This document shows positions 21,315 to 54,733 of a stretch of DNA of 64,000 bases, piece by piece. Source of the stretch: a virus (taxonomy: Duplodnaviria > Heunggongvirae > Uroviricota > Caudoviricetes); the IMG/VR virus record IMGVR_UViG_3300042445_002023; one strand, written 5' to 3'. Under the pieces are notes generated by a model that did not search any database, was not told the DNA's origin, and worked only from the letters and a program-made list of their open reading frames with translations. How positions within the stretch are numbered: the first letter of the stretch is position 1; the number at the start of each line of letters is the position of its first letter. The translations under genes and the position numbers were made by a program.

Positions 21315-21333
21315 TTTTTCGTATCTTTGTAAA

Positions 21334-22596
21334 ATGATTATAGTAGAAACCGAACAAGAAGTTCAAGAGTTTTTAAACTATTGGGGTAATCATACCTCAA
21401 TAGTTTTTCCTATATGGGCTGATTTGGAAAAGCATCCAATGAATACCTATATATCGTTTCTCTATGTCCGATTCGAAACAAAGGGAGAATGGGTAATTCC
21501 ATTTGACCATACCGATTGTGAACCGATTACAATTGACCTTAGTGAATCTACACAACCTAAAAAAGTGTGGAATAAGAAGGGATTGCTACAAACGAATTTG
21601 GGTATTCAATCCCTATATGATTTGGAAACTGAATCCTTTTTCCTCCATAATAAAACAATCCCATATAACACCCTTTTAGAACCTGCCCTGAACTTTTATA
21701 CTCGTTTGGGTATAAGAGATGATTTGGGTAAAAGTTTCCCTATAATGAAGTGGGTAGAGGTATTAAACCTTATTAGTAAAGATATCCCTTATACAACAAA
21801 CGATTTGTGGATTGATGATACGATGATTCCTATCCTTTCAGATATTGAACGAATGGGACTCCACGTCGACTACAAAAAATTTATTGATAGATGGCCTTCC
21901 AATACTAAACACCTCCATAATGAAATCATTTGGACAGAATACAATCCCTATACCCTAACCTCCCGTCCCTCCAATCGACATGGTGGCATCAATTTCGGTG
22001 CATTGAATAAGAAGGATGGTTCGAGAGAAGTTTTTATTCCCCGTGATGGAACGATGTTTTTAGGGATGGATTACGATGCGTATCACGTTCGAATTATTGG
22101 CAAGTTGATTGGGTATGACCTTCCAACCACTTCCGTCCACCAATGGTTGGCAGACCAATATGGTTGTTCCTATGAGGACTCAAAGGCTCGAACCTTTAGG
22201 ATTCTTTATGGTGGAGTGAGTGAGGAGGATAGGAGTATCCCATTTTTCCAAAAGGTTGATGAGTTCATTCAAAAACTCCATATCGGTTCATTGGAGAGAG
22301 GATGGATACAAACCGGAAAGGGGCGTAAAATCCCTATCGAATGGATTGAAGGGCTAACCCCACAAAAGGCATTCAATTATCTCCTTCAAGCAACCGAAAC
22401 GGAATTTAATATGGAAGTCATCCACAAATTAAAAGCATCCGACCTTCCACTACCGGTTCTATATCTCTATGATTCATTCCTCTTTGAGTATCCTCTGAAT
22501 TGGGGGATGGAGTCTGCAAAGGGGATTAAAATCGTGCTCGAAAGTTTTGGCTTCCCAATTAAGGCGAGTTGGGGCATGGATTACTCTAAAATTTAA
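21334..22596 (+). CDS. hypothetical protein (420 aa)
   Basis: Long ORF immediately after a TTTTCGTATCTTTG promoter-like motif; no motif recognised. Confidence 0.5.
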   Translation: MIIVETEQEVQEFLNYWGNHTSIVFPIWADLEKHPMNTYISFLYVRFETKGEWVIPFDHTDCEPITIDLSESTQPKKVWNKKGLLQTNLGIQSLYDLETESFFLHNKTIPYNTLLEPALNFYTRLGIRDDLGKSFPIMKWVEVLNLISKDIPYTTNDLWIDDTMIPILSDIERMGLHVDYKKFIDRWPSNTKHLHNEIIWTEYNPYTLTSRPSNRHGGINFGALNKKDGSREVFIPRDGTMFLGMDYDAYHVRIIGKLIGYDLPTTSVHQWLADQYGCSYEDSKARTFRILYGGVSEEDRSIPFFQKVDEFIQKLHIGSLERGWIQTGKGRKIPIEWIEGLTPQKAFNYLLQATETEFNMEVIHKLKASDLPLPVLYLYDSFLFEYPLNWGMESAKGIKIVLESFGFPIKASWGMDYSKI

Positions 22597-22627
22597 TATT
22601 TATATACTAAACGAGAAAAGTTAGTAT

Positions 22628-23293
22628 ATGAGAAAAAATTTAGGAACAATAGTGGGGATTACGTTAATGACGTTGATGCTATCATTCGTTACAATTGTAA
22701 CATTCGCACAAGATGTAGTGGTTTTAAAACACACAAATTACACCTCACACTTTAGTAAATCAAAAAGATATCCTGTCTTAGTAGAATGGTGGGAAACCAA
22801 AGCAAAAATTGGTTGTCCAAATCCAATTCCACGTAAAGATAATTTTAAACCCGACCCCCTTTTACCAAACGAAACCAATATTGGAAACGATTATGTAGGA
22901 AGTGGATTTGATAGAGGTCATCTAATGCCGGCAAAATCAAATCAATGTCAAACTCCGGCGATACAAGATGAAAGTTTCTATTATTCAAATATGGTAGCAC
23001 AATACCATAGATTAAATGCGGGAGATTGGAAATCCTTAGAAACCCTAACAAGAGATGTTGCTCTAATATCAGATTCCGTTCATGTGTGGGCAGGAAATGT
23101 GGGTGAGTTAAAAAAGATAGGAAAGATTTCCGTACCGACACAATGTTGGAAAGTTTTTTATGTAGTTAGAAATAAAGAATGGTTTGCGTTTTTATTTGAG
23201 AACGACTTATCTAAACCAGATGGTATAAATAATAATAAAGTAGAGGTTTCGGATATTGAAAAACTAACAGGGTTTAAATTCAAACAAAAATAA
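22628..23293 (+). CDS. secreted non-specific DNA/RNA endonuclease of the Serratia-nuclease (DRGH) family
   Basis: N-terminal signal peptide (LGTIVGITLMTLMLSFVTIVTFAQD) and the active-site motif GSGFDRGHLMPAKSN. Confidence 0.6.
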   Translation: MRKNLGTIVGITLMTLMLSFVTIVTFAQDVVVLKHTNYTSHFSKSKRYPVLVEWWETKAKIGCPNPIPRKDNFKPDPLLPNETNIGNDYVGSGFDRGHLMPAKSNQCQTPAIQDESFYYSNMVAQYHRLNAGDWKSLETLTRDVALISDSVHVWAGNVGELKKIGKISVPTQCWKVFYVVRNKEWFAFLFENDLSKPDGINNNKVEVSDIEKLTGFKFKQK

Positions 23294-23304
23294 GGAAAAA
23301 CAAA

Positions 23305-23922
23305 ATGGCAATAGTATTAACAAACGGAATAATAACTGAATTAAAAACATCTACAAGTGGTAAGAATTTAGCATTTGGTGATTTTGTTGGTAAAGCAATT
23401 ATATCAGGTTCGGTAGTATCATCACCAACTACAACACAATTATTAACCAATTCTGACTTTAGTTCCGGAACAACGGGATGGACAGCAAGTGGTGGATTTG
23501 GAACATGGGATTTTTATTCATCAAATCAAGCTGCAGTTTTAAATGGAGTATTGTACTTCACATATGTAAGTAGAACAGTTAGTCAATCTGTAAATGTTAG
23601 TAGTTATGTTTCTACTGCAAATTCTTTTACTGGAATTGTTAATATTAAACGTGAGAACAACGGCCCAAATAATAATGATACTTATAATTTTACATTATTA
23701 TTTAAAAACTCCGGTGGAACAACCCTTGTAACAAAAACAACAAATCAAAGTATCGCTCCTTTGAACTATACCGATGTAACATTGACTTTAGATAGAAGTG
23801 AAATTCCGGCAACATTTGATACAATAGCATCCGTAGAAGTTCGAATAACCGGACAAGATGTAGGAAACTGGAATGGTAATCACGGCCCATGGGTTGATTA
23901 TGTACAACTAAATGTATCTTAA
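23305..23922 (+). CDS. hypothetical S/T-rich protein (205 aa)
   Basis: ORF with AGGA site; rich in predicted beta structure. Confidence 0.4.
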   Translation: MAIVLTNGIITELKTSTSGKNLAFGDFVGKAIISGSVVSSPTTTQLLTNSDFSSGTTGWTASGGFGTWDFYSSNQAAVLNGVLYFTYVSRTVSQSVNVSSYVSTANSFTGIVNIKRENNGPNNNDTYNFTLLFKNSGGTTLVTKTTNQSIAPLNYTDVTLTLDRSEIPATFDTIASVEVRITGQDVGNWNGNHGPWVDYVQLNVS

Positions 23923-24039
23923 CATAAAAACAACTTACGGGATATAATTCGGAATATGGATATTTATATAAATAAGCAAAGATAAATTAGGAAAACCGAA
24001 ATATTTTTTGTATATTTGTAATGGGTAAAAAAAATAAAA

Positions 24040-26283
24040 ATGACTTCAAATCAATTTTTCAATAAATTATTACGTGAACTTTCTTATAGGAGTACCGAAG
24101 GGTATCCTATACTCGCTAAAAAAGAACATCAAGACCTAATATCAGATATTCTATCAGAATGGGGTTTGAGTTCAATGGAATCGGAACTAATCCAAAATTT
24201 AACCGAAGGTGGAGAAGAAGATGCTCAATACAAACACGTTGGACAGGGATTCTATGTAAAAGTAAGTGATGAAGGTAAAGAAGGTGCACAGAAATTTAAA
24301 AAAGATGATAATGGAAAATATTCACCGGTAAGTGATGATGAATATGAAAAACAAAAAAATAAAGCTGGTGAAGAGGGCGGACCAACTAACAATCCAAACG
24401 CTAAACCACAGGAAAAAGGTAACGGGGAAGAAGGTCAAGCGGTAGGGGGTGAACAACCACCTGCAGAACCGGAAAAGGGAACTTCATTACAAGACCCTCA
24501 ATCTCAAGAACGATTTAAGAAAGAGAAAGAAGCATCGGAGAAAGCAGCTAGAGAATCCAATCGAAAATATTCTAAAAAAGACCAATCTGCTATAAATGAT
24601 TTTCAAAGAAGAATTGGTGAAAATACCCAATTTCTAAATGCACAACAACAGGAATTAGTAAATGAAGCATTAAGTAGAATTGAAAATCTTTATGATGAGA
24701 ATTCATCAGATGAATTAAAAAAAGAGAGTGCACAATGGTTAGTGGATAATATGAAATTCTCTACCAATGATAACGGAACTAAAGCATATTTTAATGCATT
24801 GGGTGGAAATCGAAAAATCATTTCAGGAAAAGCAGGAACTGCATCAGCAGCAGAATTAGTTAATAGAGTAAAACAACACGCGGAAGTAAGAGAACATAAT
24901 CAAAAGGGTATTAAGGATAAATTATCATCCGCAGCTAAACCGGATTTAGGTAAAGAAAACGAAGCAAATCCAAAAAAATATAAACAAGTAAAGGAATTTT
25001 TCCAAAGTAATCCAATTTTAAGTAGAGTAAATGAATCATTATGGGGATTCTTTTCAGTTATGGATGAGAGTGGAAATCCTAAAATGCCGAGTAATAAATA
25101 CTCAAAAGAATATTTGGAACAAAGTTTTAAAAATCCGGCATTAGATAGAACAATTCAAGTCGCAACTGACATGTCTAAGAATGGTGAAATTGATGAAAAA
25201 TTTGTTTCTGCGTTACAAAATCATAAAAATAGATTACAAAGTCTATTAGATAAATACGAATCACCATCTGAAGAATTAGCTACAGCAATTGATGAGTCTT
25301 ATAATCAAATGATGGTTGATTTACACGAGGCAGATGCAGATGCTGCTTCTGCGGTAATGAAACAATTAGCTGAAAATCGTTTATATGAAACCCTATTGGC
25401 AAGAGGAGAAGAAGTGTACTTACCATCTAAGGGTAATTTCCCAGCAGGAGATGTTATTATGAAAGATGGTAGTGGTATGGTTTCATTGATTAGTTGTAAG
25501 TTTGGTAAATCAGGTAGAACGTATGGTTGCCCTGCAAATGCAAAAGCTATTCAATCGGTACATCCAGACCCAAACAAAAGAGAAATGACTGGTCAGTATT
25601 TAGGAGAAGGTGGTCATTTATTAGTATTAAATGATGAACTATATAGAGGAGATACTAAAGAGGAAACTATCGATAAAACTAAAAAATTCGTAATAAATTC
25701 ATTAGGTGAAATTGGATTAACAGGGGTATTCGATGAAAAAGAATTAAATGAATATGCTACTATTATAGCAGAATACACATCTGAAATTGAAAAAATAAAA
25801 CAGGAAATGGCATCAACTTCATTTCCTAGTAAAGATAAATATTGGGAAGAGTTTGGTAAAAGGTTGGCTGGAATCGATAAGGAATATGCGACTAGGATGG
25901 GTAAAATAATGACCGAAGAAAAAATTGAAAAATTAATAGGTAAAAATAATGTAGGTAATGCTCGTAATAAAAAAGGAGAAGTACCTGTTGAAGTTGCACT
26001 TTGTATGATTAACGATGCGAATAGTATTAGAACTTCAGATGGATACGGATTAGAACATAATAAACAATATTATGATGATAATGGTGAACCACATTTTGTA
26101 ACTGATAAAGGTACAAATGAACCTAATGATTATTCGATTACATATAGAACTAGAAGAACTGCAGGTAGAGCAGGAGGTGGGCCACAATATTCATTCACAG
26201 GTGATGGGAAAGTTCCAGATACAATGGTAGATAATGAAAATACTGCATACGATACCGAAAGTGGTGATGATTTAGATGACTAG
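24040..26283 (+). CDS. large acidic hypothetical protein (747 aa)
   Basis: Long ORF with low-complexity K/E/D-rich segments; no motif. Confidence 0.5.
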   Translation: MTSNQFFNKLLRELSYRSTEGYPILAKKEHQDLISDILSEWGLSSMESELIQNLTEGGEEDAQYKHVGQGFYVKVSDEGKEGAQKFKKDDNGKYSPVSDDEYEKQKNKAGEEGGPTNNPNAKPQEKGNGEEGQAVGGEQPPAEPEKGTSLQDPQSQERFKKEKEASEKAARESNRKYSKKDQSAINDFQRRIGENTQFLNAQQQELVNEALSRIENLYDENSSDELKKESAQWLVDNMKFSTNDNGTKAYFNALGGNRKIISGKAGTASAAELVNRVKQHAEVREHNQKGIKDKLSSAAKPDLGKENEANPKKYKQVKEFFQSNPILSRVNESLWGFFSVMDESGNPKMPSNKYSKEYLEQSFKNPALDRTIQVATDMSKNGEIDEKFVSALQNHKNRLQSLLDKYESPSEELATAIDESYNQMMVDLHEADADAASAVMKQLAENRLYETLLARGEEVYLPSKGNFPAGDVIMKDGSGMVSLISCKFGKSGRTYGCPANAKAIQSVHPDPNKREMTGQYLGEGGHLLVLNDELYRGDTKEETIDKTKKFVINSLGEIGLTGVFDEKELNEYATIIAEYTSEIEKIKQEMASTSFPSKDKYWEEFGKRLAGIDKEYATRMGKIMTEEKIEKLIGKNNVGNARNKKGEVPVEVALCMINDANSIRTSDGYGLEHNKQYYDDNGEPHFVTDKGTNEPNDYSITYRTRRTAGRAGGGPQYSFTGDGKVPDTMVDNENTAYDTESGDDLDD

Positions 26284-26356: not shown

Positions 26357-26767
26357 ATGCAAACACAATTATTGTGTACCTTTACAAAAAGAGATGAGTT
26401 ACAAACCATACTAGAAAAAATTAGACAAACATATACAATTGTTTATAATTACATATACGTGCTTCAGAATAAATCTAACTTAGATGAATTATATATTACA
26501 TACAATATAGATACTCAATATAAACCATCTACTCCACTAAAAGATACTATTTTAGTACATAGAAAAAAACAATCTAATACCTTATATACAATCAACGCCC
26601 TAAATGAATTAGTTAAAGAGGAAAATGGTGGTAAATTAGATAAGAGTTTTGAGATAGATTGGGAAAAATTTAGAAACACTATTATAGTGACAAATACCGA
26701 AGGAACTAAGAAACTTAGTACAAGAATTTTTGAAGTGATAGAAACTTCTGAAAATACTCCTCAATAA
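26357..26767 (+). CDS. hypothetical protein (136 aa)
   Basis: AGGAG site upstream. Confidence 0.45.
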   Translation: MQTQLLCTFTKRDELQTILEKIRQTYTIVYNYIYVLQNKSNLDELYITYNIDTQYKPSTPLKDTILVHRKKQSNTLYTINALNELVKEENGGKLDKSFEIDWEKFRNTIIVTNTEGTKKLSTRIFEVIETSENTPQ

Positions 26768-26770
26768 ATT

Positions 26771-26800
26771 TGGTAATACGAAATATTATTCGTATCTTTG
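26771..26800 (+). promoter_or_regulatory. early/middle promoter-like motif: TGGTAATACGAAATATTATTCGTATCTTTG
   Basis: TATCTTTG matches the Bacteroidetes sigA -7 consensus TAnnTTTG. An upstream TACGAA-N6-TTCGTA palindrome is present. The motif family recurs at 21316-21329, 27324-27342, 29011-29043, 38528-38556, 47746-47780, 53393-53440 and 54703-54733. Confidence 0.55.
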
Positions 26801-26827: not shown

Positions 26828-27298
26828 ATGGCAAAAAACACACCCCCACAATCAAGTGGCCCTAAGATTATAGGCCAACAGGTGAAGAATCAACTTCAAA
26901 TGAACATCGCTCCTAAATTGGAGACTAAAGATGATGAGGTTGCATTTATCAAATATGATAATCCCAAAATCATAGAACAGGTCGAAAAAGAATATCCAGA
27001 AATGACGGATGAGTTTAAACGACTTATGTTTACTCAATACGAATTGTTTTGTCTAAAACAATCAAACTACGGCCCAAACAATATTTCGGTTGGTACTAAA
27101 TTAGAAACTGCTGAGGATAAGAAATTATCACTAACGGGATTATGGTTTAGAATGAACGATAAAATCCAAAGATTAAAACAATTGGTAGTCCTAAGTAAAG
27201 AGGATTCAGTTGGGGAATCAATAGAAGATACCTTTCAAGACCTATCAGTATATGGAATTATTGCACAAATAGTTTCTAATGGTAAATGGGCAAAATAA
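26828..27298 (+). CDS. hypothetical protein (156 aa)
   Basis: Preceded by the full early motif at 26771-26800. Confidence 0.45.
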   Translation: MAKNTPPQSSGPKIIGQQVKNQLQMNIAPKLETKDDEVAFIKYDNPKIIEQVEKEYPEMTDEFKRLMFTQYELFCLKQSNYGPNNISVGTKLETAEDKKLSLTGLWFRMNDKIQRLKQLVVLSKEDSVGESIEDTFQDLSVYGIIAQIVSNGKWAK

Positions 27299-27369
27299 AC
27301 GATAGAATATTTGGATATATCAGATAATAATCGTATCTTAGCTTAATAATAAAACATAAAACTTAAAAT

Positions 27370-28992
27370 ATGAAGTATAGTAAAAAAGAATATTGTGAAA
27401 ATTGTAACGCTATATTAGGTTATGAATGTACCTATACCTTACCAATTGATAACAATTCAAAAGGTATTTTAACAATTGAACACTGGGATGGTAATCCTAA
27501 TAATAATTTATCAGATAATCTTTTAACATTATGTGGTAATTGTGCACAATACAAGACAAATTTATATCAAGATTGGCAGACACCGGGTAGAAACTTAAAA
27601 AAAGTAGAAGGTAGTAGTTGGATAGACCCTATCGATTTTATATGGAAAGATTGGATTGCATATTGTAATTCACCTCTATTTCCAAAAATAACAAATAATA
27701 TTGGTATTATTGTTGGTAAAACTGGTCAAGGTAAAACATTTACGATTACTAAATATATGATACCAGAATGGTCAAAACCAAAACATAATCTTCAATTAGT
27801 GATAGTATCGGCACCACAATGTGGTATTTTAGATGAAATTGATTTTTTATTATGTGCACAAACAAATAAATGGTTTTTTTCAGATAACCCTCAACGTACA
27901 CTTGAACTTTTAGAAGATGGTCATCGTGTAATCCATATTTCAACTCACAAAGGATTGGTAAGTAAGAATGGAAAGAATCTTATAAAATATTGTAAGAAAA
28001 GTAACGTAAAACATGCGATAATTATCGATGAGGCCCACACGTGGTTATGTACTAATCCAGAAGTTTATAAAAAGGTAGTAGGTTGGAATACCGATGGTTA
28101 TTCTGCATGCCTCTATAATTTATTATCTGAAATTACACGTTACAATCCATATGTATTTGGTTTAACCGCAACACCAAATGGTGAACAAACTGGAAAAGTA
28201 GCAATCAATAATTCAAAAACTACTTTTCAAATTATAAATAAAAGTTGTCCTGTGCAACTTTTACTACCAAAACAGGCATGGATTAAAGAACATGGATATT
28301 TGAATTTAGAAAAGGTAGAAGAAACATTTGATAAAGTAAAAGAAAGAATTATTGAAATTGAAAACTCAAAATTAATTACAGGAGTTAAGAAAACACTTTT
28401 GTTATCATGTGCTATTAGTGGATATGATAATCCATATGAAGTAGATTCCGTATTGGAAAGGGTAAATCAAATTTATTTAGATTTGGGAATGGAAGGTGAT
28501 TTTAAAACATGTGTTATGACAAGTGGTAGAAATGAATCTTACTCTCCCGATGGAAGTATTGAACAAGAAAATGAAACTTCATTAAAACGAAAATTAAATA
28601 ATAACGAAGACCCTTTATCCGTAATTCTTGTCGTTCATAAAGGAACTATGGGAATGAATATTCCTACTATGAGTGGAGTAATGGTTTTAAAGAGAACTGA
28701 TAAAGATGATGGTGACGGGCTATCACTTACTGAATTCGCAAGACAATTAATAGGTCGGTTGGTTCGAATAAATGTACTTAATCAGAAATCGTTGAAAGAG
28801 CAATATAATTATGATTTTTCTGAATACTATCAAACATTATCGGATGAAGAAAAGATAAATGCAATTGAAGCTAATTCATTCTTTGTAGATATTCCGGCTA
28901 ATAATGAAATGTGGGAATTAGCTATACAAGAATTCAGACAAACATATGTTAATAACGTTGAATTTGCAATTGAATCGTTGAATAAATTATAA
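27370..28992 (+). CDS. DEAH-box superfamily-2 helicase or ATPase with an N-terminal Cys4 zinc finger
   Basis: Walker A (IGIIVGKTGQGKTFT), DEAH motif (IIDEAHTW), and an N-terminal CENCN...CGNC cluster. Confidence 0.6.
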   Translation: MKYSKKEYCENCNAILGYECTYTLPIDNNSKGILTIEHWDGNPNNNLSDNLLTLCGNCAQYKTNLYQDWQTPGRNLKKVEGSSWIDPIDFIWKDWIAYCNSPLFPKITNNIGIIVGKTGQGKTFTITKYMIPEWSKPKHNLQLVIVSAPQCGILDEIDFLLCAQTNKWFFSDNPQRTLELLEDGHRVIHISTHKGLVSKNGKNLIKYCKKSNVKHAIIIDEAHTWLCTNPEVYKKVVGWNTDGYSACLYNLLSEITRYNPYVFGLTATPNGEQTGKVAINNSKTTFQIINKSCPVQLLLPKQAWIKEHGYLNLEKVEETFDKVKERIIEIENSKLITGVKKTLLLSCAISGYDNPYEVDSVLERVNQIYLDLGMEGDFKTCVMTSGRNESYSPDGSIEQENETSLKRKLNNNEDPLSVILVVHKGTMGMNIPTMSGVMVLKRTDKDDGDGLSLTEFARQLIGRLVRINVLNQKSLKEQYNYDFSEYYQTLSDEEKINAIEANSFFVDIPANNEMWELAIQEFRQTYVNNVEFAIESLNKL

Positions 28993-29119
28993 AAATTCTT
29001 TGATTAATTATATACGAAAATCGGAAATTCGTATATTTATATACACACACCGCGAGTAGGAAAGACTCGTAAATAAAACCATAAAACAACTTAATTTTAA
29101 ACACTTAAACGGAGAAAAA

Positions 29120-29956
29120 ATGGCATTAGACATTAACGCAATTAGAGGTAGACTAAACAAACTACAAAACACACAAAAGAAAACGGATGCATTGTGGAAA
29201 CCAACACCTGGCAAATCCCAAGTCCGTATCGTCCCTTACAAGTTCAACAAAGATAATCCTTTTATCGAACTTTATTTTCACTACAACGTAAATAACAAAA
29301 CTTATCTATCTCCAATTTCATTTGGTAGACCTGACCCTATTGTTGAGTTTGCAGACAAACTTAAAAGAATGGGTGATAAGGAAGATTGGAAAGCAGCAAA
29401 GGCAATGGAGCCTAAGTTGAGAACCTTCGTTCCTGTTATTGTTCGCGGTCAAGAAAGTGAAGGAGTTAAATTTTGGGGATTTGGCAAGACAGTTTATCAA
29501 GAAATTTTGGGTTACATTGCTGACCCCGATTACGGAGATATTACTGACCCAAATGCCGGTAGAGATTTAACAGTTGATTACATTTCTGCGGAAGATGCAG
29601 GTACATCGTATCCTACGACTACACTGCGTGTTAAACCAAATCAAACACCATTGGCAGAAGGTGGAGACCTTCAGAAATTCTTAGATAATCAAACTGAGAT
29701 TACTGAATTGTATTCCGAACTTTCTTACGCTGAATTAAAGAATGTATTAGAAGGATGGTTAAATCCATCTGCAACATCGGAAGATGATGATACAACTTCA
29801 GTAGTAGAGGAAACCCTTTCAACCAACACTACATCTAAGGCTACACCAAGTGTATCACATGATTTAGGCGGTTCAATCGAAACTCCATCACAACCACCAG
29901 TTTCTAAAAAGACTGATGATGTAGCTGCAGCATTCGATGATTTATTTAACAATTAA
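29120..29956 (+). CDS. single-stranded DNA-binding protein (gp32-like, putative)
   Basis: Acidic C-terminal tail ending DDVAAAFDDLFNN, typical of SSB tails; lies directly upstream of the recombinase. Confidence 0.45.
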   Translation: MALDINAIRGRLNKLQNTQKKTDALWKPTPGKSQVRIVPYKFNKDNPFIELYFHYNVNNKTYLSPISFGRPDPIVEFADKLKRMGDKEDWKAAKAMEPKLRTFVPVIVRGQESEGVKFWGFGKTVYQEILGYIADPDYGDITDPNAGRDLTVDYISAEDAGTSYPTTTLRVKPNQTPLAEGGDLQKFLDNQTEITELYSELSYAELKNVLEGWLNPSATSEDDDTTSVVEETLSTNTTSKATPSVSHDLGGSIETPSQPPVSKKTDDVAAAFDDLFNN

Positions 29957-33766: not shown

Positions 33767-34873
33767 ATGAAATTATTACTAGGAGATTGTTTAGATAAAC
33801 TTAAAGAATTAGATGATAATTCGGTGGATAGTATTGTTACTGACCCGCCATATGGACTTGCATTTATGGGCAAACACTGGGATTATGATGTTCCATCACA
33901 GCAGATATGGGAAGAATGCCTTCGTGTTCTAAAACCAGGAGGTCATATCCTTTCATTCGCGGGTAGTAGAACTTATCACAGAATGGCTGTAAGAATTGAA
34001 GATGCAGGGTTTGAGATTAGAGACCAGATTATGTGGATATATGGTTCAGGGTTTCCTAAATCACATAACATAGGACATAAGTTAGAAGAATGGCAAGGTT
34101 GGGGAACTGCTCTTAAACCGGCACATGAACCTATTGTAATGGCAAGAAAACCTTTGAGTGAAAGCACAGTAGCAGAGAATGTTTTAGAATGGGGAACTGG
34201 TGGGATAAACATAGATGGTTGCAGGATTGAACTTAATGGTGATTATAAATCAAAAGCAAATGGTAGACCCTCATTGACAGGATTAGATGATGGTTATGAT
34301 AGTAGTAACGCTAACATAGCAGATACAATAGGCAGATTTCCAGCAAATGTAATCTTTGATGAAGAAGCAGGTAGGTTATTGGATGAACAAAGTGGAGTAT
34401 CAAAATCACCAGGAGGTAGTGGGGATAAATCAATGGGAGAATTGGGCAAAAACGGTAAATATGGAAACTATGCATTAGATGTTAAAGCTGCAAATTTAGG
34501 TGGATTGGGAGATGTTGGTGGTGCTAGTAGATTTTTCTACTGTCCTAAAACATCAAAGAGTGATAGAAACGAAGGAAGTAATAACACACACCCGACTGTC
34601 AAACCAACGGATTTGATGCTATACCTTATTCGTTTGGTTACTAAAAACGATGGAACGATATTAGACCCGTTTATGGGAAGTGGAAGTACTGGTAAAGCAG
34701 CAATTAGAGGTGGTTTTGATTTTATTGGTATTGAAAGAGAAAAAGAATACTTTGAAATTTCGAAAACAAGAATTGAATATGAAAAAAACAGACCGGTTAG
34801 CAAACCAATAAAAGGAAACCGTGTAGAAGTGAAACCGGAAGTGAAAGAAAAAATAAATCAATTTTTTGAGTAA
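33767..34873 (+). CDS. DNA N6-adenine/N4-cytosine methyltransferase, beta class
   Basis: Motif IV (IVTDPPYGLAF) lies before motif I (LDPFMGSGSTGKAA); the gene is flanked by 40-bp direct repeats. Confidence 0.7.
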   Translation: MKLLLGDCLDKLKELDDNSVDSIVTDPPYGLAFMGKHWDYDVPSQQIWEECLRVLKPGGHILSFAGSRTYHRMAVRIEDAGFEIRDQIMWIYGSGFPKSHNIGHKLEEWQGWGTALKPAHEPIVMARKPLSESTVAENVLEWGTGGINIDGCRIELNGDYKSKANGRPSLTGLDDGYDSSNANIADTIGRFPANVIFDEEAGRLLDEQSGVSKSPGGSGDKSMGELGKNGKYGNYALDVKAANLGGLGDVGGASRFFYCPKTSKSDRNEGSNNTHPTVKPTDLMLYLIRLVTKNDGTILDPFMGSGSTGKAAIRGGFDFIGIEREKEYFEISKTRIEYEKNRPVSKPIKGNRVEVKPEVKEKINQFFE

Positions 34874-38355: not shown

Positions 38356-38524
38356 TAGACGAGGGGAAAATCATCCTAAGGCTAAACTAACAAACGAGCA
38401 AGTTATATCAATAAGAGACCTTTTTAAGAAAGGGTTTTCAGTTAATGTTATAGCAAGAAACTTTAAAGTTAGTAAGTGGAATATTTCAGAAATTGTAAAA
38501 CGTCAAACGTGGACACACATTTGA
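38339..38524 (+). CDS. small helix-turn-helix-like protein (61 aa); possible remnant of a homing-endonuclease DNA-binding module
   Basis: The segment NHPKAKLTNEQVISIRDLFKKGFSVNVIARNFKVSKWNISEIVKR resembles the helix-turn-helix modules of free-standing endonucleases; sits in the RNR/thioredoxin neighbourhood. Confidence 0.3.
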   Translation: MNVSNNRRGENHPKAKLTNEQVISIRDLFKKGFSVNVIARNFKVSKWNISEIVKRQTWTHI

Positions 38525-38527
38525 TTT

Positions 38528-38556
38528 GGAAATACGGAATATTTTTCGTATCTTTG
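38528..38556 (+). promoter_or_regulatory. early/middle promoter-like motif: GGAAATACGGAATATTTTTCGTATCTTTG
   Basis: Same motif family; 35 nt upstream of methyltransferase paralog 1. Confidence 0.5.
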
Positions 38557-38590: not shown

Positions 38591-39823
38591 ATGTATATAG
38601 AGTATTTTGATAAATTTTATGGTATGACACCATATCTTTATATCGGTAAGGAAGAGTGGTCTCACATTAAAAAAACATACCAAAGAGAAGACGTTAAGGA
38701 ATCTCTTGCCAAAGTATGTATGACATATGAATTACCATATGCAGATATTTCTGAAGAGGATGCAAGAAAAGAGTATCTTAAATTAAAAGGAACTCGTTAT
38801 CACGAACTTCTAACCGAAGGTGAGTGGTTTCCTCGTAAGGCATCTGAAACCCGTTATCCATTAGGATTTCAAGGTAAACAACAATATGTAAGAAGGCTGA
38901 ATACTGGTAATGGGGCATCGAATCATTTTCAACAAGCAAATAGATGGAGCGTAGATGGGACAGTATCGCCTGGCCCATTCCGTACTTGGAATAACCCTGA
39001 TTTTATGTTTTCACTAATCGGTGGAATGTATACCCTAAAATTTGATGAGGTTAGTAAAAATACCCTAAGAACTTGTCTATCTTTAAGAAAGTATATTTGT
39101 TCTCAGTTCAAACCAAACGTAGCAAAGGCACTTTATGATTTCGTTCAAGCAAAGAATGTATTAGATATTTCTGCTGGATGGGGTGATAGATTATGTGGAT
39201 TTTTCGCATCAGAATATGGTGAGCATTATGTAGGTATTGACCCGCGTAAAGAAAATCATCCAATATACGAAAAACAAGCCGAATTCTATAAAAAGAATAA
39301 TGGTTTTTTTGAAACTGATAAGAGGGCAACCTTTCATTGTTCTCCCGCAGAGGATATGGATTATAGTGAGTATACCGATTACTTTGATATTGTATTCAGT
39401 TCGCCACCATATTTCAACGTAGAGAGATATTCATATGATGATACTCAAAGTTGGATTCGATATAAAAATATTGATGCATGGAATAAATTATTCTTACATG
39501 CAACGATTGAAAAAGTATGGCCTACTATCCGTAAGGGTGGGTATCTAGCAGTTAATATCGCAGATGTATATGCATCCTCAAAGGGTGATGGCAAAGGTCA
39601 ACAGGAAATCACTAACCCAATGAACGATTTTATTTCCACATTAGAAGGTGCAGAGTATCAAGGATGTTTAGGTATGGAAATGGCTAAGAGGCCAGGTTCA
39701 ATTGGAGCAGGTGCAATGATTGAGGGAGATGAAGACCGATATTCCGAAGAAGAAAAGCAAAAGGCAATTGAAAATGCCGGTAAAACTTTCTGCGAACCGG
39801 TATGGGTATTTAGGAAAATGTAA
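38591..39823 (+). CDS. SPPY-motif methyltransferase-like protein, paralog 1 (putative DNA amino-methyltransferase with an unrecognised N-terminal domain)
   Basis: Motif I-like DISAGWGDRLCGFFAS...HYVGIDP, then motif IV FSSPPYFN about 75 aa later; paralogous to 39828 and 48533. Confidence 0.5.
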   Translation: MYIEYFDKFYGMTPYLYIGKEEWSHIKKTYQREDVKESLAKVCMTYELPYADISEEDARKEYLKLKGTRYHELLTEGEWFPRKASETRYPLGFQGKQQYVRRLNTGNGASNHFQQANRWSVDGTVSPGPFRTWNNPDFMFSLIGGMYTLKFDEVSKNTLRTCLSLRKYICSQFKPNVAKALYDFVQAKNVLDISAGWGDRLCGFFASEYGEHYVGIDPRKENHPIYEKQAEFYKKNNGFFETDKRATFHCSPAEDMDYSEYTDYFDIVFSSPPYFNVERYSYDDTQSWIRYKNIDAWNKLFLHATIEKVWPTIRKGGYLAVNIADVYASSKGDGKGQQEITNPMNDFISTLEGAEYQGCLGMEMAKRPGSIGAGAMIEGDEDRYSEEEKQKAIENAGKTFCEPVWVFRKM

Positions 39824-39827
39824 TTTA

Positions 39828-41048
39828 ATGATAAAAGAATATTTCAAAAAGTTTTATGGAATGACCCCCTATATCAATATTGATAAGGAGGAGTGGAAAC
39901 ATATACTAAATACATTTGAAAAGGAAGAGATAGTAGAAACATTATCAGAAGTATTACATACTTATCCACCACCTATTCCTATTATTACAGAACAAGAAAC
40001 GATTGATGCATATAAAAAGTTAAAGGGTACTTGGTGGCCGGATATTTTAGTGGAGGGAGAATGGTTTCCGCGTAATGAAAGGGAATCTGCATATCCACTT
40101 ACATTTGATAGTAGTAATTATTACTTTAAAAGAACGAATGTTGGTAATAACGCATCCAACCCATTCCATATAGAAAATCGATGGAAGGTAGATTGGTCAA
40201 GAACACCATCAGGTTGGAAGACATGGCAGACAGTTAATGGTATAAAAACCATAGTTCGGGCATTCTTCACATTAGAACAAGTCCTAACTGATGTAAATAA
40301 GGAAACACTAAAGATGGCAACTACATTACGAAAGTATGTGGCATCACAATTCAAACCTGTAATTGCTAAAGCATTTTATGATAGATTCCAAAGTGAGAAT
40401 ATATTAGATTTTTCAGCAGGTTGGGGAGATAGATTATGTGGATTCTTTGCAAGTGAAACGGGTAAACATTATGTTGGTATAGACCCTAATTTAGATAATC
40501 ACCCAAATTATGAAAACCAAATAGAATTTTATCAGAAACACAAAACGTTTTTTGAGAATCCTAAAACTGTGGAACTGATAAAGTTACCGGCAGAAGATGT
40601 GGATTATTCCAAATATGAAAACTTTTTTGATACAATCTTCACTTCACCTCCATACTTCAATACTGAAAAGTATTCCACACATGATACTCAAAGTTATTTA
40701 CGCTATAAAAAGATAGATGATTGGAATACCAATTTCCTACATAAAACAATTAAAAAAATAATCCCTACCTTAAAGAAGGGTGGGTTATTAGCAGTTAATA
40801 TTGCAGATGTATTTTCAGCACCAGATAAGGGGTATGTTGATATTGTAAATGCTATGAATGACTTTATTAAATCAGAGGGATTAGAATATATGGGTTGTAT
40901 TGGAATGGAAATGACAAAAAGGTTTAATTCCGGCGGTGCAGGAAATGCTAAATCTGAATATTTTGCAGAAGAACTCAAAGAAAAAACAGAACTCAATAAA
41001 AATAATGCATTTGGTGAACCCATTTGGATTTGGAAAAAAATAAAATAA
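39828..41048 (+). CDS. SPPY-motif methyltransferase-like protein, paralog 2
   Basis: DFSAGWGDRLCGFFAS...HYVGIDP and FTSPPYFN; start placed at the ATG at 39828, directly after the paralog 1 stop, to match the paralog 1 N-terminus (MIKEYFKKFYGMTPY against MYIEYFDKFYGMTPY). Confidence 0.5.
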   Translation: MIKEYFKKFYGMTPYINIDKEEWKHILNTFEKEEIVETLSEVLHTYPPPIPIITEQETIDAYKKLKGTWWPDILVEGEWFPRNERESAYPLTFDSSNYYFKRTNVGNNASNPFHIENRWKVDWSRTPSGWKTWQTVNGIKTIVRAFFTLEQVLTDVNKETLKMATTLRKYVASQFKPVIAKAFYDRFQSENILDFSAGWGDRLCGFFASETGKHYVGIDPNLDNHPNYENQIEFYQKHKTFFENPKTVELIKLPAEDVDYSKYENFFDTIFTSPPYFNTEKYSTHDTQSYLRYKKIDDWNTNFLHKTIKKIIPTLKKGGLLAVNIADVFSAPDKGYVDIVNAMNDFIKSEGLEYMGCIGMEMTKRFNSGGAGNAKSEYFAEELKEKTELNKNNAFGEPIWIWKKIK

Positions 41049-44840: not shown

Positions 44841-45206
44841 ATGTCCAATATGATAAAGTTAAAGAATCTAATTACCGAATTCGGCGGAAAACAATTTAAA
44901 GGAGCTGAAGGAATCCCTGCTAATAAATCTTTGGAAAAAATTAGTAAGACTGAAAAGTTAAATATAATCAAAGGTAAAGGTAATATTATTGATTTTATCG
45001 TTCCTGATGAATATAAAGGTAAAAGAAACTTTTGGCAAGTAATATCTACCGGTAGTATTAAAAAATCCTCATCTGGTAAGATTGTTATGTTAATGGGTGG
45101 TGGTCTGATAAATTCTCCATCATTTGATACCATTGATGATTTGATTGATGGTGTGAATTGGAAATCAATGGAAGAGAGAAGAAGATTTAATGAATCAATA
45201 AAATAA
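44841..45206 (+). CDS. hypothetical protein (121 aa)
   Basis: Start taken at the ATG at 44841 after AAGGA; the track began at 44793. Confidence 0.4.
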   Translation: MSNMIKLKNLITEFGGKQFKGAEGIPANKSLEKISKTEKLNIIKGKGNIIDFIVPDEYKGKRNFWQVISTGSIKKSSSGKIVMLMGGGLINSPSFDTIDDLIDGVNWKSMEERRRFNESIK

Positions 45207-45233
45207 TAAAATTACACATAAAAAGTTACAGAT

Positions 45234-47741: not shown

Positions 47742-47815
47742 AATAAATTTGGATAATTCAAAAATTATTCGTATCTTTACACTTACAATAAATTAAAACA
47801 ATAAAAAAAAACAAC

Positions 47816-48529
47816 ATGGAAAAAGGTAAATTAGGTCGTTTCGTACAAAAGTACAATCTTGCAGGTTTAGTAGAATCTGTAAAGTGGGAAACAAAAGACA
47901 ACTCATTAACAACTGCATTCATTTCTGATGACAAATCAGTATTGGGTAAAGTAACAATGACAGATTTTGGTTATAGTGATACAACATTTGGTGTATATGA
48001 TACATCTAAGTTGACTAAAATGTTATCAGTATTAGGAGAATCAATTGATTTTGAAATTTCTGATGTAGATGGTAAAGCGGTATCATTAAAGTTTAAAGAT
48101 GGTTCAACTTCAATCAATTATATGTTGGCTGACCTTTCGGTTATCCCAAATGTACCTGATTTGAAACAATTACCAACTTTCAACATTAAAATTAAGTTAG
48201 ACGAAAACTTTATTACAAAGTTCATCCGTGCTAAATCGGCGTTGACAGATGAGAACAATTTCACATTTGTTGCAAAAGATGGTAAGTGTCAAATTATCTT
48301 AGGTCATTCAAACATTAACACTAATAGAATTTCTATTGATGTTGATTGTGAGTGTGAAGGTAGTATTAACCCAATCTCATTCTCAGCAACTTACTTAAAG
48401 GAAATCTTAGTTGCAAACAAAGAAGCTAAAGATGCTATCTTAGAAATTTCATCACAAGGATTATCTCACATTCATTTTGAAGTAGATGCCTATACATCCG
48501 ATTACTATTTAGTGGAAATCGCTAACTAA
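47816..48529 (+). CDS. sliding clamp (gp45-like, putative)
   Basis: 237 aa ORF between the polymerase and clamp-loader genes, preceded by the early motif; no strong motif, assigned from size and context. Confidence 0.35.
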   Translation: MEKGKLGRFVQKYNLAGLVESVKWETKDNSLTTAFISDDKSVLGKVTMTDFGYSDTTFGVYDTSKLTKMLSVLGESIDFEISDVDGKAVSLKFKDGSTSINYMLADLSVIPNVPDLKQLPTFNIKIKLDENFITKFIRAKSALTDENNFTFVAKDGKCQIILGHSNINTNRISIDVDCECEGSINPISFSATYLKEILVANKEAKDAILEISSQGLSHIHFEVDAYTSDYYLVEIAN

Positions 48530-48532
48530 GAT

Positions 48533-50167
48533 ATGAGTAAACACTATTACGAAAGGTCTAAATTTTCTGAATTCCAATCCAATACAACTTATCATCGGTT
48601 ATTAGAAATGACTGATGATGAGTTTATTAGTTGGGCAAAGTTACTACGCATAGAAGTAACTAAACAATGGGATACCGATGGTGTTCCTCCTGTTATCGGA
48701 AAAGATAAGAATGATATAATCGATTCATTCAAAAAGTTAAAAACAAATGATTGTGATTTCCTTCAAAAAGATTTGACGGGAGATGATAACTCATTGGGTA
48801 TTTTACAAAACTTCAATAAAGATGCATCAGCCGTAAATCAATTCTTTCCAACTATGTTGAAAACCAAAATATCAATCGGTAAATCAGCAGAAGGTGGATT
48901 ATCTATTTATGACCATTTCTCAGACCCGAAATTAGAAGATACCTTCGTTCATATAATGAAGAGGGCGGTTAAGAAAGATTCTATGTATTCGTGGTCACGT
49001 TCTATTGTGAATAAGAAAGATGAGAATGAATTTTGGGATGGTGAAACTGGAATTGAATTTATACAAAAAGTACATGAAGGTAAAGTGTTCGTTGGTAAGT
49101 ACGAAAACATAGGTATTGTTCTTGCGAAAGTAAAGGAGGATACCTTAGATAATTATGGTACTATCAATGAACAATATATTGGATTTGGTAATCTATACCT
49201 AACTGCTGAACAAGTACAAGAATGTAAGGATAAGGGATGGTTATCACATACTCAATTATCTAATATTAAAACGATTGAACCATCTACCACTTTAAAAGAT
49301 GGGACGGTTAAAAAGTTTTTCTATCTGATTCGTTGGTATGATAAGACAATTGGTATCTTTCCAAAGATATTACAAGTGTTTCGTTTAAGTTGTGGTCAAC
49401 CTGCAGTGAATTTCCCTGCACTAACTGCTAAGTGGTTATACGAACATTACACTTCACATATTGAACAATCAGACCCCCTACACATTTATGATTCATCAAG
49501 TGGATGGGGTGGCAGAATATTAGGTGCAATGAGTTCTCGTAAGAAAACCCATTACATTGGAACTGACCCGAACCCTGATAACTTTATACCGGAATTAGGT
49601 ATTTCACGTTATGAGTATGTGGCTGATTTCTATAACAAAAATTGTGTAGATGATTACTCAGAAACATTTGGTAAGTTCTTTGAGGTTCAAAAACAATCAA
49701 ACACTTATGAGTTATTTCAAGATGGCTCGGAGTTGATTCAACATAATCCTAAGTTTCAAAAGTATGCAGGTAAATTGGATTTAGCATTCACATCACCCCC
49801 ATATTTTAATAGAGAACAATATTCACAAGATGAGAATCAATCATTCAAAGCATATGGTGAATATGAGGATTGGAGACAAAACTTCTTACGTCCTACTCTA
49901 ACTACCATTTATGATTATCTTAAAAATGATAGATACATTCTATGGAACATAGCCGATATTAAAATTGGTAAGGATACCTATTATGCATTGGAACAAGATT
50001 CTATTGATATTCTAACCGGATTAGGTTGTGAGTATAAAGGTAGATTGAAGATGTTAATGACCCGAATGGTAGGATTAGACCCATCTAAAACCGGTATTAA
50101 AAACGCAGTTAAACACGATGGTAAAGCGTATAAGTTTGAACCCATTTTTGTATTTTACAAACCATAA
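48533..50167 (+). CDS. SPPY-motif methyltransferase-like protein, paralog 3, with an extra N-terminal extension of about 300 aa
   Basis: SSSGWGGRILGAM...HYIGTDP and AFTSPPYFN; C-terminal block YILWNIADI aligns with LAVNIADV in paralogs 1 and 2. Confidence 0.5.
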   Translation: MSKHYYERSKFSEFQSNTTYHRLLEMTDDEFISWAKLLRIEVTKQWDTDGVPPVIGKDKNDIIDSFKKLKTNDCDFLQKDLTGDDNSLGILQNFNKDASAVNQFFPTMLKTKISIGKSAEGGLSIYDHFSDPKLEDTFVHIMKRAVKKDSMYSWSRSIVNKKDENEFWDGETGIEFIQKVHEGKVFVGKYENIGIVLAKVKEDTLDNYGTINEQYIGFGNLYLTAEQVQECKDKGWLSHTQLSNIKTIEPSTTLKDGTVKKFFYLIRWYDKTIGIFPKILQVFRLSCGQPAVNFPALTAKWLYEHYTSHIEQSDPLHIYDSSSGWGGRILGAMSSRKKTHYIGTDPNPDNFIPELGISRYEYVADFYNKNCVDDYSETFGKFFEVQKQSNTYELFQDGSELIQHNPKFQKYAGKLDLAFTSPPYFNREQYSQDENQSFKAYGEYEDWRQNFLRPTLTTIYDYLKNDRYILWNIADIKIGKDTYYALEQDSIDILTGLGCEYKGRLKMLMTRMVGLDPSKTGIKNAVKHDGKAYKFEPIFVFYKP

Positions 50168-50169
50168 TT

Positions 50170-51522: not shown

Positions 51523-51543
51523 AACAAATAATATTTATACATA

Positions 51544-52131: not shown

Positions 52132-52132
52132 T

Positions 52133-53080: not shown

Positions 53081-53391
53081 TAGAGTTGGTTAATGATAAT
53101 CTTAAAGAAATTATTAATAACCATTCTAAGGTATTCATAATGTTCTACGCAGATTGGTGTCCTGATTGTGCAAAGATAAAACCTCACTTTGAAAGATTAT
53201 CTACATATTATGAAAATATATCATTTGTGTATATCAATGCAGATGAATCACCAAAGAGTAGGAGCATTATCAATTTAACGAATATACCTACGTTTCTAGG
53301 AGTCTTTGAGGGAAATATAGTAGAAACACCCCTAATAGGAAGTAAACCTGAAAAAATCGAAGAATACCTTCAAAAAATAGTATCCTTATAA
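53077..53391 (+). CDS. thioredoxin-fold protein
   Basis: WCPDC CxxC motif; start taken at the ATG that overlaps the upstream stop (ATGA). Confidence 0.55.
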   Translation: MIELVNDNLKEIINNHSKVFIMFYADWCPDCAKIKPHFERLSTYYENISFVYINADESPKSRSIINLTNIPTFLGVFEGNIVETPLIGSKPEKIEEYLQKIVSL

Positions 53392-53441
53392 TTTGGTAAT
53401 ACGGATATATTTTCGTATATTTAAGGATAAATACGGATATA

Positions 53442-53651
53442 ATGATAACATACGACCCTAAAAACCCACTAACTGACGATGATTTAAAGAAATTATCAGA
53501 GGATGATTTTTTCTCTTATTTAGACCAACTAGCCTTACATAAGCGTAAAGATAAAAAAGTAGTAGGTGAGTGGAAAAAGAAAGGCCACGAAGTTCTTAGA
53601 AAAAGTGGTGTAACTAAGTTAAAGACCAATAGAGGACAATGGTTCGATTAA
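53442..53651 (+). CDS. hypothetical protein (69 aa)
   Basis: Preceded by a long early motif with an internal direct repeat. Confidence 0.4.
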   Translation: MITYDPKNPLTDDDLKKLSEDDFFSYLDQLALHKRKDKKVVGEWKKKGHEVLRKSGVTKLKTNRGQWFD

Positions 53652-53671
53652 TAAATTAAACAAAAAAAAAT

Positions 53672-53980
53672 ATGTCAACAGAAGTACAATTAGCAAAACC
53701 ATTAGGAGATAGAGTCCTAATTAAAGTAGAGTCAGGAGAAAAAAAGATTGGTGGAATCATCATACCAGACACTGTTCAAGATGGTGATAACAAATTTGGT
53801 ATAATTGTTTCAGTAGGGAATGGTATTTATACCCAAAATGGAGCTAAAATTCCAATGGAAGTATCAGTAGGTGATAAAGTATTATTACCGCATGGTGGAA
53901 TGAATATTCAAAAAATTAAATTAGATGATACTGAATATTTCTTATGTAGAGAAATGGATTTATTAATGGTTATAAAATAA
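53672..53980 (+). CDS. groES: co-chaperonin GroES (Cpn10) homolog
   Basis: LAKPLGDRVLIKVESGEKKIGGIIIPDTVQD...GIIVSVGNG matches the GroES consensus along its length. Confidence 0.7.
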   Translation: MSTEVQLAKPLGDRVLIKVESGEKKIGGIIIPDTVQDGDNKFGIIVSVGNGIYTQNGAKIPMEVSVGDKVLLPHGGMNIQKIKLDDTEYFLCREMDLLMVIK

Positions 53981-53986
53981 AATAAT

Positions 53987-54253
53987 ATGGCACAAATTTT
54001 AGGAGCAGGTGGTCAACCAATTGGTGGACAAAATGATGAAGTTGAAATCCCATTAGAAAAAACAACATCAATCGCATGTAACAAATGTGGTGGTGAAGTT
54101 TTTGTACAAGGATTTGGATTTAGAAAAATATCTAAGTTATTAACAGGTAAACCAAAGGATGAAGTTCTACCAGTAGAATTATTTCTATGTGGTGAATGTG
54201 GCGAGGTACTTAATGAAGTACTACCTCCTGGTTTAAAAGTAGAACAAGAATAA
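53987..54253 (+). CDS. zinc-ribbon protein (88 aa)
   Basis: CNKCGG ... CGECG. Confidence 0.45.
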   Translation: MAQILGAGGQPIGGQNDEVEIPLEKTTSIACNKCGGEVFVQGFGFRKISKLLTGKPKDEVLPVELFLCGECGEVLNEVLPPGLKVEQE

Positions 54254-54702
54254 TGGCGAAATCACTATTCGACCATATAAAGGCAATTACAACCGAACAA
54301 GACCCAAAATATTGGGATAAGTTGGATGATGCTGATAAAAAGACTTGGTCTAATTATATGGTACATCGTTTCATCTCAATGAATCCAGATTGGATATCTG
54401 TTATTTCAGAGATACAACCTTATACTGAAATATTAGAACCCAAACAATTATATCTAGCACTAATTGGTATTATCCCAAAAGGGAAATATTACCTTAGATA
54501 TGTAAAAGGTAAGAAAGAAGATACCTACGAAAAATGGTTAGTTGAATTGGTTGCAAAGGATTATCAATGTTCTACAAAACAGGCTGAAGAGTATTTAGAA
54601 ATCTTATATTCAACAAAAGAAGGTAGGGAACATATTAAGTATACCTGTGAGAGATATGCAATCGAACCAAAAGAAATTACAAAATTAAAATTAAAAATAT
54701 AG
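54253..54702 (+). CDS. hypothetical protein (149 aa)
   Basis: ORF only. Confidence 0.4.
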   Translation: MAKSLFDHIKAITTEQDPKYWDKLDDADKKTWSNYMVHRFISMNPDWISVISEIQPYTEILEPKQLYLALIGIIPKGKYYLRYVKGKKEDTYEKWLVELVAKDYQCSTKQAEEYLEILYSTKEGREHIKYTCERYAIEPKEITKLKLKI

Positions 54703-54733
54703 TTGGTAATATCGAATAATTTTCGTATCTTTA
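54703..54733 (+). promoter_or_regulatory. early/middle promoter-like motif: TTGGTAATATCGAATAATTTTCGTATCTTTA
   Basis: Same motif family; upstream of the PD-(D/E)XK nuclease. Confidence 0.45.

Follow-up and report, generated by a model that had tools for sequence, protein, structure and literature searches.

Predicted promoters of the Bacteroidota type recur between the genes of an uncultured T4-like jumbo phage

Promoters recognized by the primary sigma factor of the Bacteroidota consist of a -33 element, TTTG, and a -7 element, TAnnTTTG (PMC2483708, PMC7366714). In Flavobacterium johnsoniae, the -7 element has been refined to TAHHTTTG, in which T-12, A-11, T-8, T-7, T-6, and G-5 are nearly invariant and about 5 nucleotides (nt) lead to the start site, and the -33 element is weak, to the point of being barely detectable (PMC6847099). 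Here, we analyzed a 35-nt motif that recurs between the genes of a 64,000-nt stretch of DNA (the window) from a phage of the Caudoviricetes, IMG/VR record IMGVR_UViG_3300042445_002023. The motif resembles the promoters of Bacteroides fragilis, F. johnsoniae, and Bacteroides thetaiotaomicron in having both elements, a spacing of 20 nt between them, and no G at the variable positions of the -7 element; in lying on the coding strand upstream of genes; and in preferring G8, S15, R16, and G27 (motif numbering). It differs from the average host promoter in that the phage-borne copies are much nearer the consensus, the -33 element is nearly invariant, and several copies end in TTTA or TTAG. Judged by this build, the copies are very probably complete host-type promoters for the holoenzyme that carries the Bacteroidota primary sigma factor (sigma-ABfr). 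They would be a phage-borne set of an already known promoter type and would involve no new mechanism.

The window phage is an uncultured T4-like, immuto-related jumbo myophage, and the window covers 64 kb of a genome of probably 150 to 290 kb. T4-like phages have a middle promoter class of the MotA/AsiA type, and PeSL are mobile promoter cassettes of T4-type phages. The window is like T4-like phages in its T4-type replication module, in the multiple putative host-sigma promoters that stand before replication and nucleotide-metabolism genes, and in a separate AT-rich motif that precedes its structural genes. It is unlike them in that its promoter consensus is of the Bacteroidota type rather than TTGACA/TATAAT and in that the window showed neither a MotA box nor a MotA or AsiA homologue. 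As with PeSL, the promoter copies of the window phage and its clade are repeated in intergenic regions, and the copy upstream of the DNA polymerase gene polB that four relatives carry is absent from the window; unlike with PeSL, no conserved stem-loop was found with these copies, and no recombination junctions were demonstrated. Flavobacterium phage vB_FspM_immuto (immuto) carries gene-strand sites of the form (C/T)TTGG-N-TTTC(G/T)TATATT(A/T)A and has divPolA1, synteny, and the tail sheath in common with the window phage. The immuto boxes differ in mostly ending in A and in often having CT for CG before the TA, and the regular polymerase of immuto belongs to family A, whereas that of the window phage belongs to family B.

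A bipartite 35-nucleotide motif upstream of genes

A preliminary description of the window had reported eight copies of an intergenic motif of about 30 base pairs (bp), in which a -7 box was joined to a separate 5' inverted repeat. The recurrence is real and nonrandom, but the literal 30-mer consensus given there has no match in the window at ≤3 mismatches, and the true length is 35 nt. By itself, TATCTTTG is mildly enriched (10 occurrences, with 5.4 expected). When the eight reported places were aligned on TCGTAT as an anchor, they yielded a motif in fixed register, AAATTTGGwAAT-N12-TTCGTATmTTwr, also written AAATTTGG-wAAT-N12-TTCGTAT(C/A)TT(T/A)(G/A). Its build is bipartite: TTTGG is followed by 19 variable bases and then by TCGTAT(C/A)TT(T/A)(G/A), which amounts to TTTG-N20-TAnnTTTG. 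The -33 element, TTTG(G), occupies motif positions 4 to 8, and the -7 element, TA-nn-TTTG (with TCGTATCTTTG as the -7 sequence), occupies positions 28 to 35, leaving a spacer of 20. Thus, the 5' TTGG is the -33 TTTG at the canonical 20-nt spacing, and the motif has the architecture of one complete promoter rather than that of a promoter with a separate upstream element.

A matrix built from eight window sites gave leave-one-out scores of 28 to 45 bits, compared with a best score of 14.5 bits in 50 shuffles. This window matrix also picked up a ninth site, 23984 (31 bits), on which it had not been trained, as well as a weak tenth, 17474. With a second matrix, retrained on the sites of related phages (the family matrix, see below), exactly ten window sites scored above 5 bits, and the minus strand had none (Table 1). 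Every gene in the window is on the plus strand, and intergenic DNA makes up 5.9% of it; all ten sites are on the plus strand, all are intergenic, and all end 5 to 45 nt before a start codon. The spacing between the -33 and -7 elements is exactly 20 nt in 10 of 10 sites. The -33 element reads TTTGG in eight of them, GTTGG at 54699, and TTAGG at 23984; the -7 box is a full TAnnTTTG in four, ends in TTTA in three, and has TTAG in three.

Seven of the eight copies reported before are in the matrix set. The remaining one, at 29011-29043, is differently built: it has no TTTGG at the right spacing, and it overlaps TATATTTATATA. Three sites, 18160, 23984, and the weak 17474, were absent from the earlier list. 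What had been given as a copy at 21316-21329 is a real site of which only the 3' end was recorded, and the copy at 27324-27342 that had been called degenerate has an intact core. The downstream genes also needed correction, since it is the DUF1599 gene that follows the site at 26766 and the helicase gene that follows the site at 27307, while the name "clamp" for the product of the gene at 47816 is positional only.

If the sites function as their architecture suggests, host RNA polymerase carrying the Bacteroidota primary sigma factor would bind the -33 and -7 elements. Further base preferences are for G at -32, for T-S-R-R from about -26 to -23, and for TTCG at -16 to -13. The expected start of transcription lies about 5 nt past the final G of the -7 box, and the predicted leaders would be about 0 to 40 nt long, A-rich, and free of a Shine-Dalgarno sequence. 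The divPolA1 site has the final G of its -7 box only 4 nt before the ATG; therefore, a leaderless or near-leaderless divPolA1 mRNA is predicted. The genes behind the sites include divPolA1, those for the DUF1599 protein, the helicase, and a methyltransferase-like protein, the gene after polB, the Cpn10 block, and the nuclease gene. Because the phage is T4-like and immuto-related and the copies stand before replication and nucleotide-metabolism genes, the sites most likely represent an early or middle, host-sigma-dependent promoter class. The replication and nucleotide-metabolism genes or blocks would then be transcribed early or in mid-infection, and the sites would define probable early or middle transcription units of these phages.

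Conservation in related phages and match to Bacteroidota genomes

Relatives were collected by a PolB-based search of IMG/VR, which gave 80 loci at 54 to 99% PolB identity on contigs of up to 288 kb. With the sole exception of L069, all of these loci have matches to the window matrix, and the matches are confined to the gene strand. After two rounds of retraining, the family comprised 215 distinct sites, every one of them on the gene strand. In the profile of these 215 sites, T5, T28, A29, T32, and T33 are present at 99 to 100% (T28 at 99%; A29, T32, and T33 at 100%). Positions 4 to 7, the TTTG of the -33 element, stand at 86%, 100%, 92%, and 93%, and G8 stands at 95%; G7, G8, and G27 all lie between 93 and 95%, T34 is at 82%, and G35 is at 71%. 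G makes up about 1% at the variable -7 positions, 30 and 31, which fits TAHHTTTG (PMC6847099). The preliminary description had taken the 3' part of the motif for a Bacteroidota -7 box and had argued from it for a Bacteroidota host; the family profile bears out both points, with T28, A29, T32, and T33 in essentially every site. The spacer is A/T-rich, apart from a single C or G at position 15 (91% C or G) that is followed by two purines.

Orthologous sites were compared at three places: downstream of polB, upstream of the methyltransferase-like gene, and upstream of the nuclease gene. At all three, TTTGG and TCGTAT.TTT. are retained (conserved blocks TTTGG and TTCGTATaTTTG), and the spacer drifts. 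This is the pattern expected of a bipartite promoter recognized by a sigma factor. The site after polB is present in most of the 80 related loci. Upstream of polB, four relatives (L002, L006, L009, and L066, at 9940-9980) have a promoter of the same motif directly before the gene. In the window (45100-45233), that promoter is absent, the upstream gene is a different one, and homology resumes at the TTG start of polB. Promoter copies thus seem to come and go with swaps of gene cassettes.

To place the motif among cellular promoters, 185,579 species genomes (one per species) were scanned for exact matches to TTTGG-N15-TTCGTATMTTTG. At least 120 loci matched. Among the matches listed, 114 are from Bacteroidota and six are from other phyla, the latter including one cyanobacterium and one member of the Gastranaerophilales. 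The Bacteroidota among them are mostly Prevotella, Alistipes, Bacteroidaceae, and Muribaculaceae, with Sphingobacterium, Cytophagales, and Saprospiraceae also represented; matches in Kapaibacterium and Melioribacteraceae were counted as Bacteroidota on what we take to be their GTDB placement. The genes downstream of the matches listed are many and unrelated, and the genomes have 40 to 60% GC. In 842 kb of Bacteroidota DNA around these matches, TTTG-Nx-TAHHTTTG peaks at x = 20, with 67 occurrences beyond the selected matches; the neighboring spacings x = 19 and x = 21 have 23 and 10, respectively, and the background is 3 to 6. The architecture of the phage motif is identical to that of these host promoters. 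Host sites that are independent of the scanned pattern have G8 in 69%, C or G at position 15 in 73%, a purine at position 16 in 75%, G27 in 50%, and T24/T25 in 64%. Because independent host sites prefer these bases too, the extra conserved bases of the phage sites appear to be host-promoter preferences and not phage-specific ones.

One variant stood out among the genome loci. Many Bacteroidales genomes carry the near-identical sequence TTTGGCATTkCGCTCGCTTATTCGTATCTTTG upstream of unrelated genes (L087, L099, L100, L111, L124, L134, L140, L148, L156, and about 15 other genome loci, with two copies in L156). This sequence may be a repeated, dispersed promoter unit.

Several points weigh against reading the sites as promoters for the Bacteroidota holoenzyme. 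The nearest cultured relative of the phage, Microcystis phage Mel-JY01, has a cyanobacterium, Microcystis elabens, as its recorded host, and the motif also allows a loose sigma-70 reading, TTGnnn-17-TAnnnT. The phage sites have a nearly invariant -33 element, unlike the weak one of F. johnsoniae (PMC6847099), and six of the ten window sites have a -7 box that ends in A or contains TTAG. The 95% share of Bacteroidota rests on the matches listed, which are of unknown order and come without a control pattern. It is possible that a phage sigma factor or activator is encoded outside the 64-kb window. In addition, we infer initiation at the sites, its start position, its strength, and its temporal class from the DNA sequence. 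Provided that the assignment to the Bacteroidota holoenzyme holds, it gives a sequence-only call of the host phylum (Bacteroidota) for the window phage and for at least 80 related uncultured jumbo-phage contigs. It would also make available about 215 natural near-consensus Bacteroidota promoters, with preferred bases at -32, -25, and -16 to -13, as possible parts for Bacteroidota genetics.

Table 1. Predicted promoter sites and copies of a second motif in the window
Feature	Position (nt)	Strand	Downstream gene	Remarks
Weak candidate promoter (TTTGG ... TGTGTAGTTTAG)	17474..17508	+	ORF 17552-17911	17.3 bits with family matrix, 10.4 bits with window matrix
Predicted promoter AAATTTGGAAATCTCAGCTATTCTTCGTATATTAG	18160..18194	+	ORF 18226-18597, 32 nt downstream	32.8 bits; leave-one-out 30.7
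Predicted promoter	21295..21329	+	divPolA1-like gene 21334-22596	Matrix match
Predicted promoter AAATTAGGAAAACCGAAATATTTTTTGTATATTTG	23984..24018	+	747-aa ORF 24040-26283	31-33 bits; outside original eight-site training set
Predicted promoter	26766..26800	+	DUF1599 gene 26828-27298	Top-scoring; spacer forms near-perfect 20-bp dyad ATACGAAATA/TTATTCGTAT
Predicted promoter, -7 box TATCTTAG	27307..27341	+	ResIII/HNH helicase gene 27370-28992	34 bits; no palindrome
Predicted promoter	38522..38556	+	Methyltransferase-like paralogue 38591-39823	Left arm ATACGGA (6/7)
Predicted promoter	47745..47779	+	ORF 47816-48529, clamp by position only	Directly after polB
Predicted promoter	53389..53423	+	Small ORF 53442-53651, then Cpn10	Left arm ATACGGA; second ATACGGATAT at 53431-53440
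Predicted promoter	54699..54733	+	PD-(D/E)XK nuclease gene 54753-55610	Matrix match
Variant site	29011..29043	+	Single-stranded DNA-binding protein gene 29120-29956	Not recovered by either matrix
Second motif TATATTTATA	2670, 6088, 7112, 15864, 29032, 44817, 55634	+
Near-copies of second motif	5497, 23958	
ORF, open reading frame; aa, amino acids.

The spacer palindrome and other explanations

The preliminary description had read the 5' part of the motif as an inverted repeat, TACGAA-N6-9-TTCGTA, that could serve as an operator. In this explanation, a dyad ATACGAA-N6-TTCGTAT over the spacer and the -7 box would bind a dimeric regulator of phage or host origin, which would repress or time a subset of the promoters. 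Some support comes from the window itself, where the left arm is present at ≥6 of 7 bases in 3 of the 10 sites, with about 0.2 expected from the family column frequencies. At 26766, the sequence ATACGAA-N6-TTCGTAT can be extended to a near-perfect 20-bp dyad, and the repeat at 29013 has 8-bp arms. Further ATACGrA promoters occur in close relatives (upstream of polB in L002, L006, and L009), and a small helix-turn-helix (HTH)-like ORF, 38339-38524, ends at one site of the ATACGrA type, although its HTH match is below the Pfam threshold.

However, this pattern does not extend to the family. Exact TACGAA-N4-12-TTCGTA occurs only twice in the window, at 26777 and 29013, with loops of 6 and 9 nt, respectively, and a palindrome is found in just 3 or 4 window sites. 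In the family, the left arm (≥6 of 7 bases) is present in just 17 of the 215 sites. At orthologous sites in L009, L033, and L053, the arm is lost and the promoter elements are kept; the L009 orthologue of the site at 38522, for example, has ATGTGAA in place of the arm. Spacer inverted repeats are not in excess, as the mean longest stem in de-replicated spacers is 3.72, compared with 3.97 in a column-shuffled null, and a G at position 16 breaks the dyad in two copies. Host promoters, too, have the T-S-R-R spacer preference, and the left arm can instead be understood as its C-G-R-R form, which complements the invariant TTCG by chance. We therefore rejected the palindrome as a family-wide feature, and we regard a promoter-plus-operator arrangement as improbable.

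A clade-specific form of this explanation was also considered. Here, a subset of the promoters (26766, 38522, 53389, and perhaps 54699, 23984, and the variant site at 29011) would have gained the 20-bp dyad ATACGAAATA/TTATTCGTAT as the operator of a regulator, with the TTCGTAT of the promoter as one half-site. This form, too, strikes us as doubtful. If it were true, these sites would make up a separately timed subclass among otherwise constitutive host-sigma promoters.

The ORF at 38339 had been put forward as a candidate regulator. It encodes 61 aa, with a weak HTH_38 match and the motif GENHPKAKLT, and it is conserved at 49 to 100% identity in 40 related loci, where the promoter that precedes the methyltransferase-like gene always follows it directly. 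Its presence in these loci is independent of whether their promoters are palindromic, so a tie to palindromic promoters by co-occurrence was rejected. A tandem direct repeat of ATACGGATAT had also been described. The sequence does occur twice, at 53399 and 53431 (rather than 53430), but the two occurrences are 32 nt apart and are not in tandem. As a conserved feature, this repeat was rejected, being imperfect in the 98%-identical L002 and absent from L009.

Less probable than an operator, in our estimate, is a promoter class specified by the phage, in which a phage activator, an appropriated sigma factor in the manner of T4 MotA/AsiA, or a phage sigma factor or RNA polymerase, in place of the unmodified host holoenzyme, would recognize the extra bases (G-32, S-25, and TCG at -15 to -13). 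The MotA/AsiA class of T4-like phages provides a precedent, and across relatives as distant as 54% PolB identity, the 35 nt are conserved far more strictly than is typical of sets of host promoters. Against this, the same extra preferences are present in the independent chromosomal promoters of Bacteroidota described above, and the bipartite shape and host-optimal spacing fit recognition by regions 4 and 2 of a host sigma factor. No RNA polymerase, sigma factor, MotA, or AsiA homologue was seen among the scanned ORFs of the window, most of the genome lying outside it.

We give very little credence to ordinary sigma-70-type promoters (-35 TTGnnn, 17 bp, -10 TAnnnT) of a non-Bacteroidota AT-rich or cyanobacterial host: TTGGwA-N17-TATmTT can be read in this shape and Mel-JY01 is recorded on Microcystis, but a scan of the window for canonical TTGACA/TATAAT sites found no excess over shuffles (96 versus 95.3 and 81 versus 105.2 expected), with the copy at 18164 (9/12) as the sole motif copy among the listed matches, T, T, T, and G at -8, -7, -6, and -5 (100%, 100%, 82%, and 71%) are the Bacteroidota signature and not that of sigma-70 (PMC6847099), the genome matches listed are Bacteroidota in 114 of 120 cases against the one cyanobacterium and the one member of the Gastranaerophilales, and the host of the next cultured relative is a Flavobacterium.

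The host label of Mel-JY01 itself bears on this question. In the stretch of its genome that was compared (L001; PP395634.1, 53198-95738), sites of the form TTGC/TTTGG-N-TTCGTAnnTTTG number 10 on the gene strand and 1 on the opposite strand. These sites appear to be of the Bacteroidota type and may conflict with the recorded host, M. elabens, a label that may deserve reexamination. A literature search for Mel-JY01 found nothing.

A variant site, a second motif, and gene content

The site upstream of the gene for the single-stranded DNA-binding protein (SSB) has arms TATACGAA (29011-29018) and TTCGTATA (29028-29035), each of 8 bp, around a loop of 9 nt. Its -7-like box, TATATTTA (29032-29039), is fused to TATATTTATATA, and the extended -7 region, TTCGTATATTTA, is intact; a -33 TTTG at N20 is lacking. 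The sequence TATATTTATATA belongs to a second motif, TATATTTATA (TA), which occurs seven times on the plus strand and not at all on the minus strand (Table 1). Copies of this second motif are always intergenic, stand mostly before structural genes, and are often preceded by a T-run or a hairpin. They represent a candidate late promoter class. The second motif differs in sequence from the T4-type late promoter (TATAAATA, which is gp55 dependent), and the window yielded no gp55 homologue. At the SSB gene, the 35-nt motif and the second motif may be combined in a hybrid site that serves both transcription programs. T4 transcribes its gene 32 from middle as well as late promoters.

At about 70 nt, the predicted SSB leader (29044-29119) is unusually long. 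Within it, a CGAGT...ACTCG hairpin precedes an A-rich stretch, an arrangement that recalls the translational operator of T4 gene 32.

Around the individual sites, a terminator-like hairpin with a T-run lies at 17411-17437, just upstream of the weak site at 17474. A terminator scan gave no enrichment, and this was the only convincing terminator that adjoined a site. Searches of PDB sequences with the products of the 747-aa ORF at 24040 and of the putative clamp gene at 47816 gave no significant match.

The window has a GC content of 32.5%. Scans with PHROG and Pfam identified tail sheath and baseplate hub genes and a T4-type replication block consisting of a gp32-like SSB, UvsX, a 5'-3' exonuclease, a DnaB-type helicase, a family B polymerase, and both clamp-loader subunits. 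They also identified ribonucleotide reductase, thioredoxin, Cpn10, a PD-(D/E)XK nuclease, several methyltransferase-like paralogues, and glycosyltransferases. No tRNA genes and no Rfam families were found in the window. At the DNA level, megablast with 9 kb of the window found no match to GenBank phages, and a PolB search of the species genomes found no binned relatives or prophages.

By protein comparison, the closest record is Mel-JY01, with identities of 51% for PolB and 47% for the tail sheath. In the tail sheath ranking, Mel-JY01 is followed by an uncultured 484-kb phage, then by immuto (39%), and then by Rhodothermus phage RM378. The gene order SSB-UvsX-exonuclease-DnaB-ribonucleotide reductase is common to immuto and the window phage. 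The product of the ORF at 21334-22596 is homologous to immuto gp001 (28% identity, E value of 1e-38), the protein named divPolA1 that was described for a group of 155- to 190-kb phages around immuto whose regular polymerase is of family A, B, or C (PMC11348598). From these protein relationships, we place the window phage in the PolB-bearing branch of the divPolA1 group.

Three of the methyltransferase-like ORFs are paralogous (38591-39823, 39729-41048, and 48533-50167; phrog_12517/498/67), and a clear DNA methyltransferase is encoded separately at 33767-34873. As called, the first two of the three paralogues overlap by about 95 nt.

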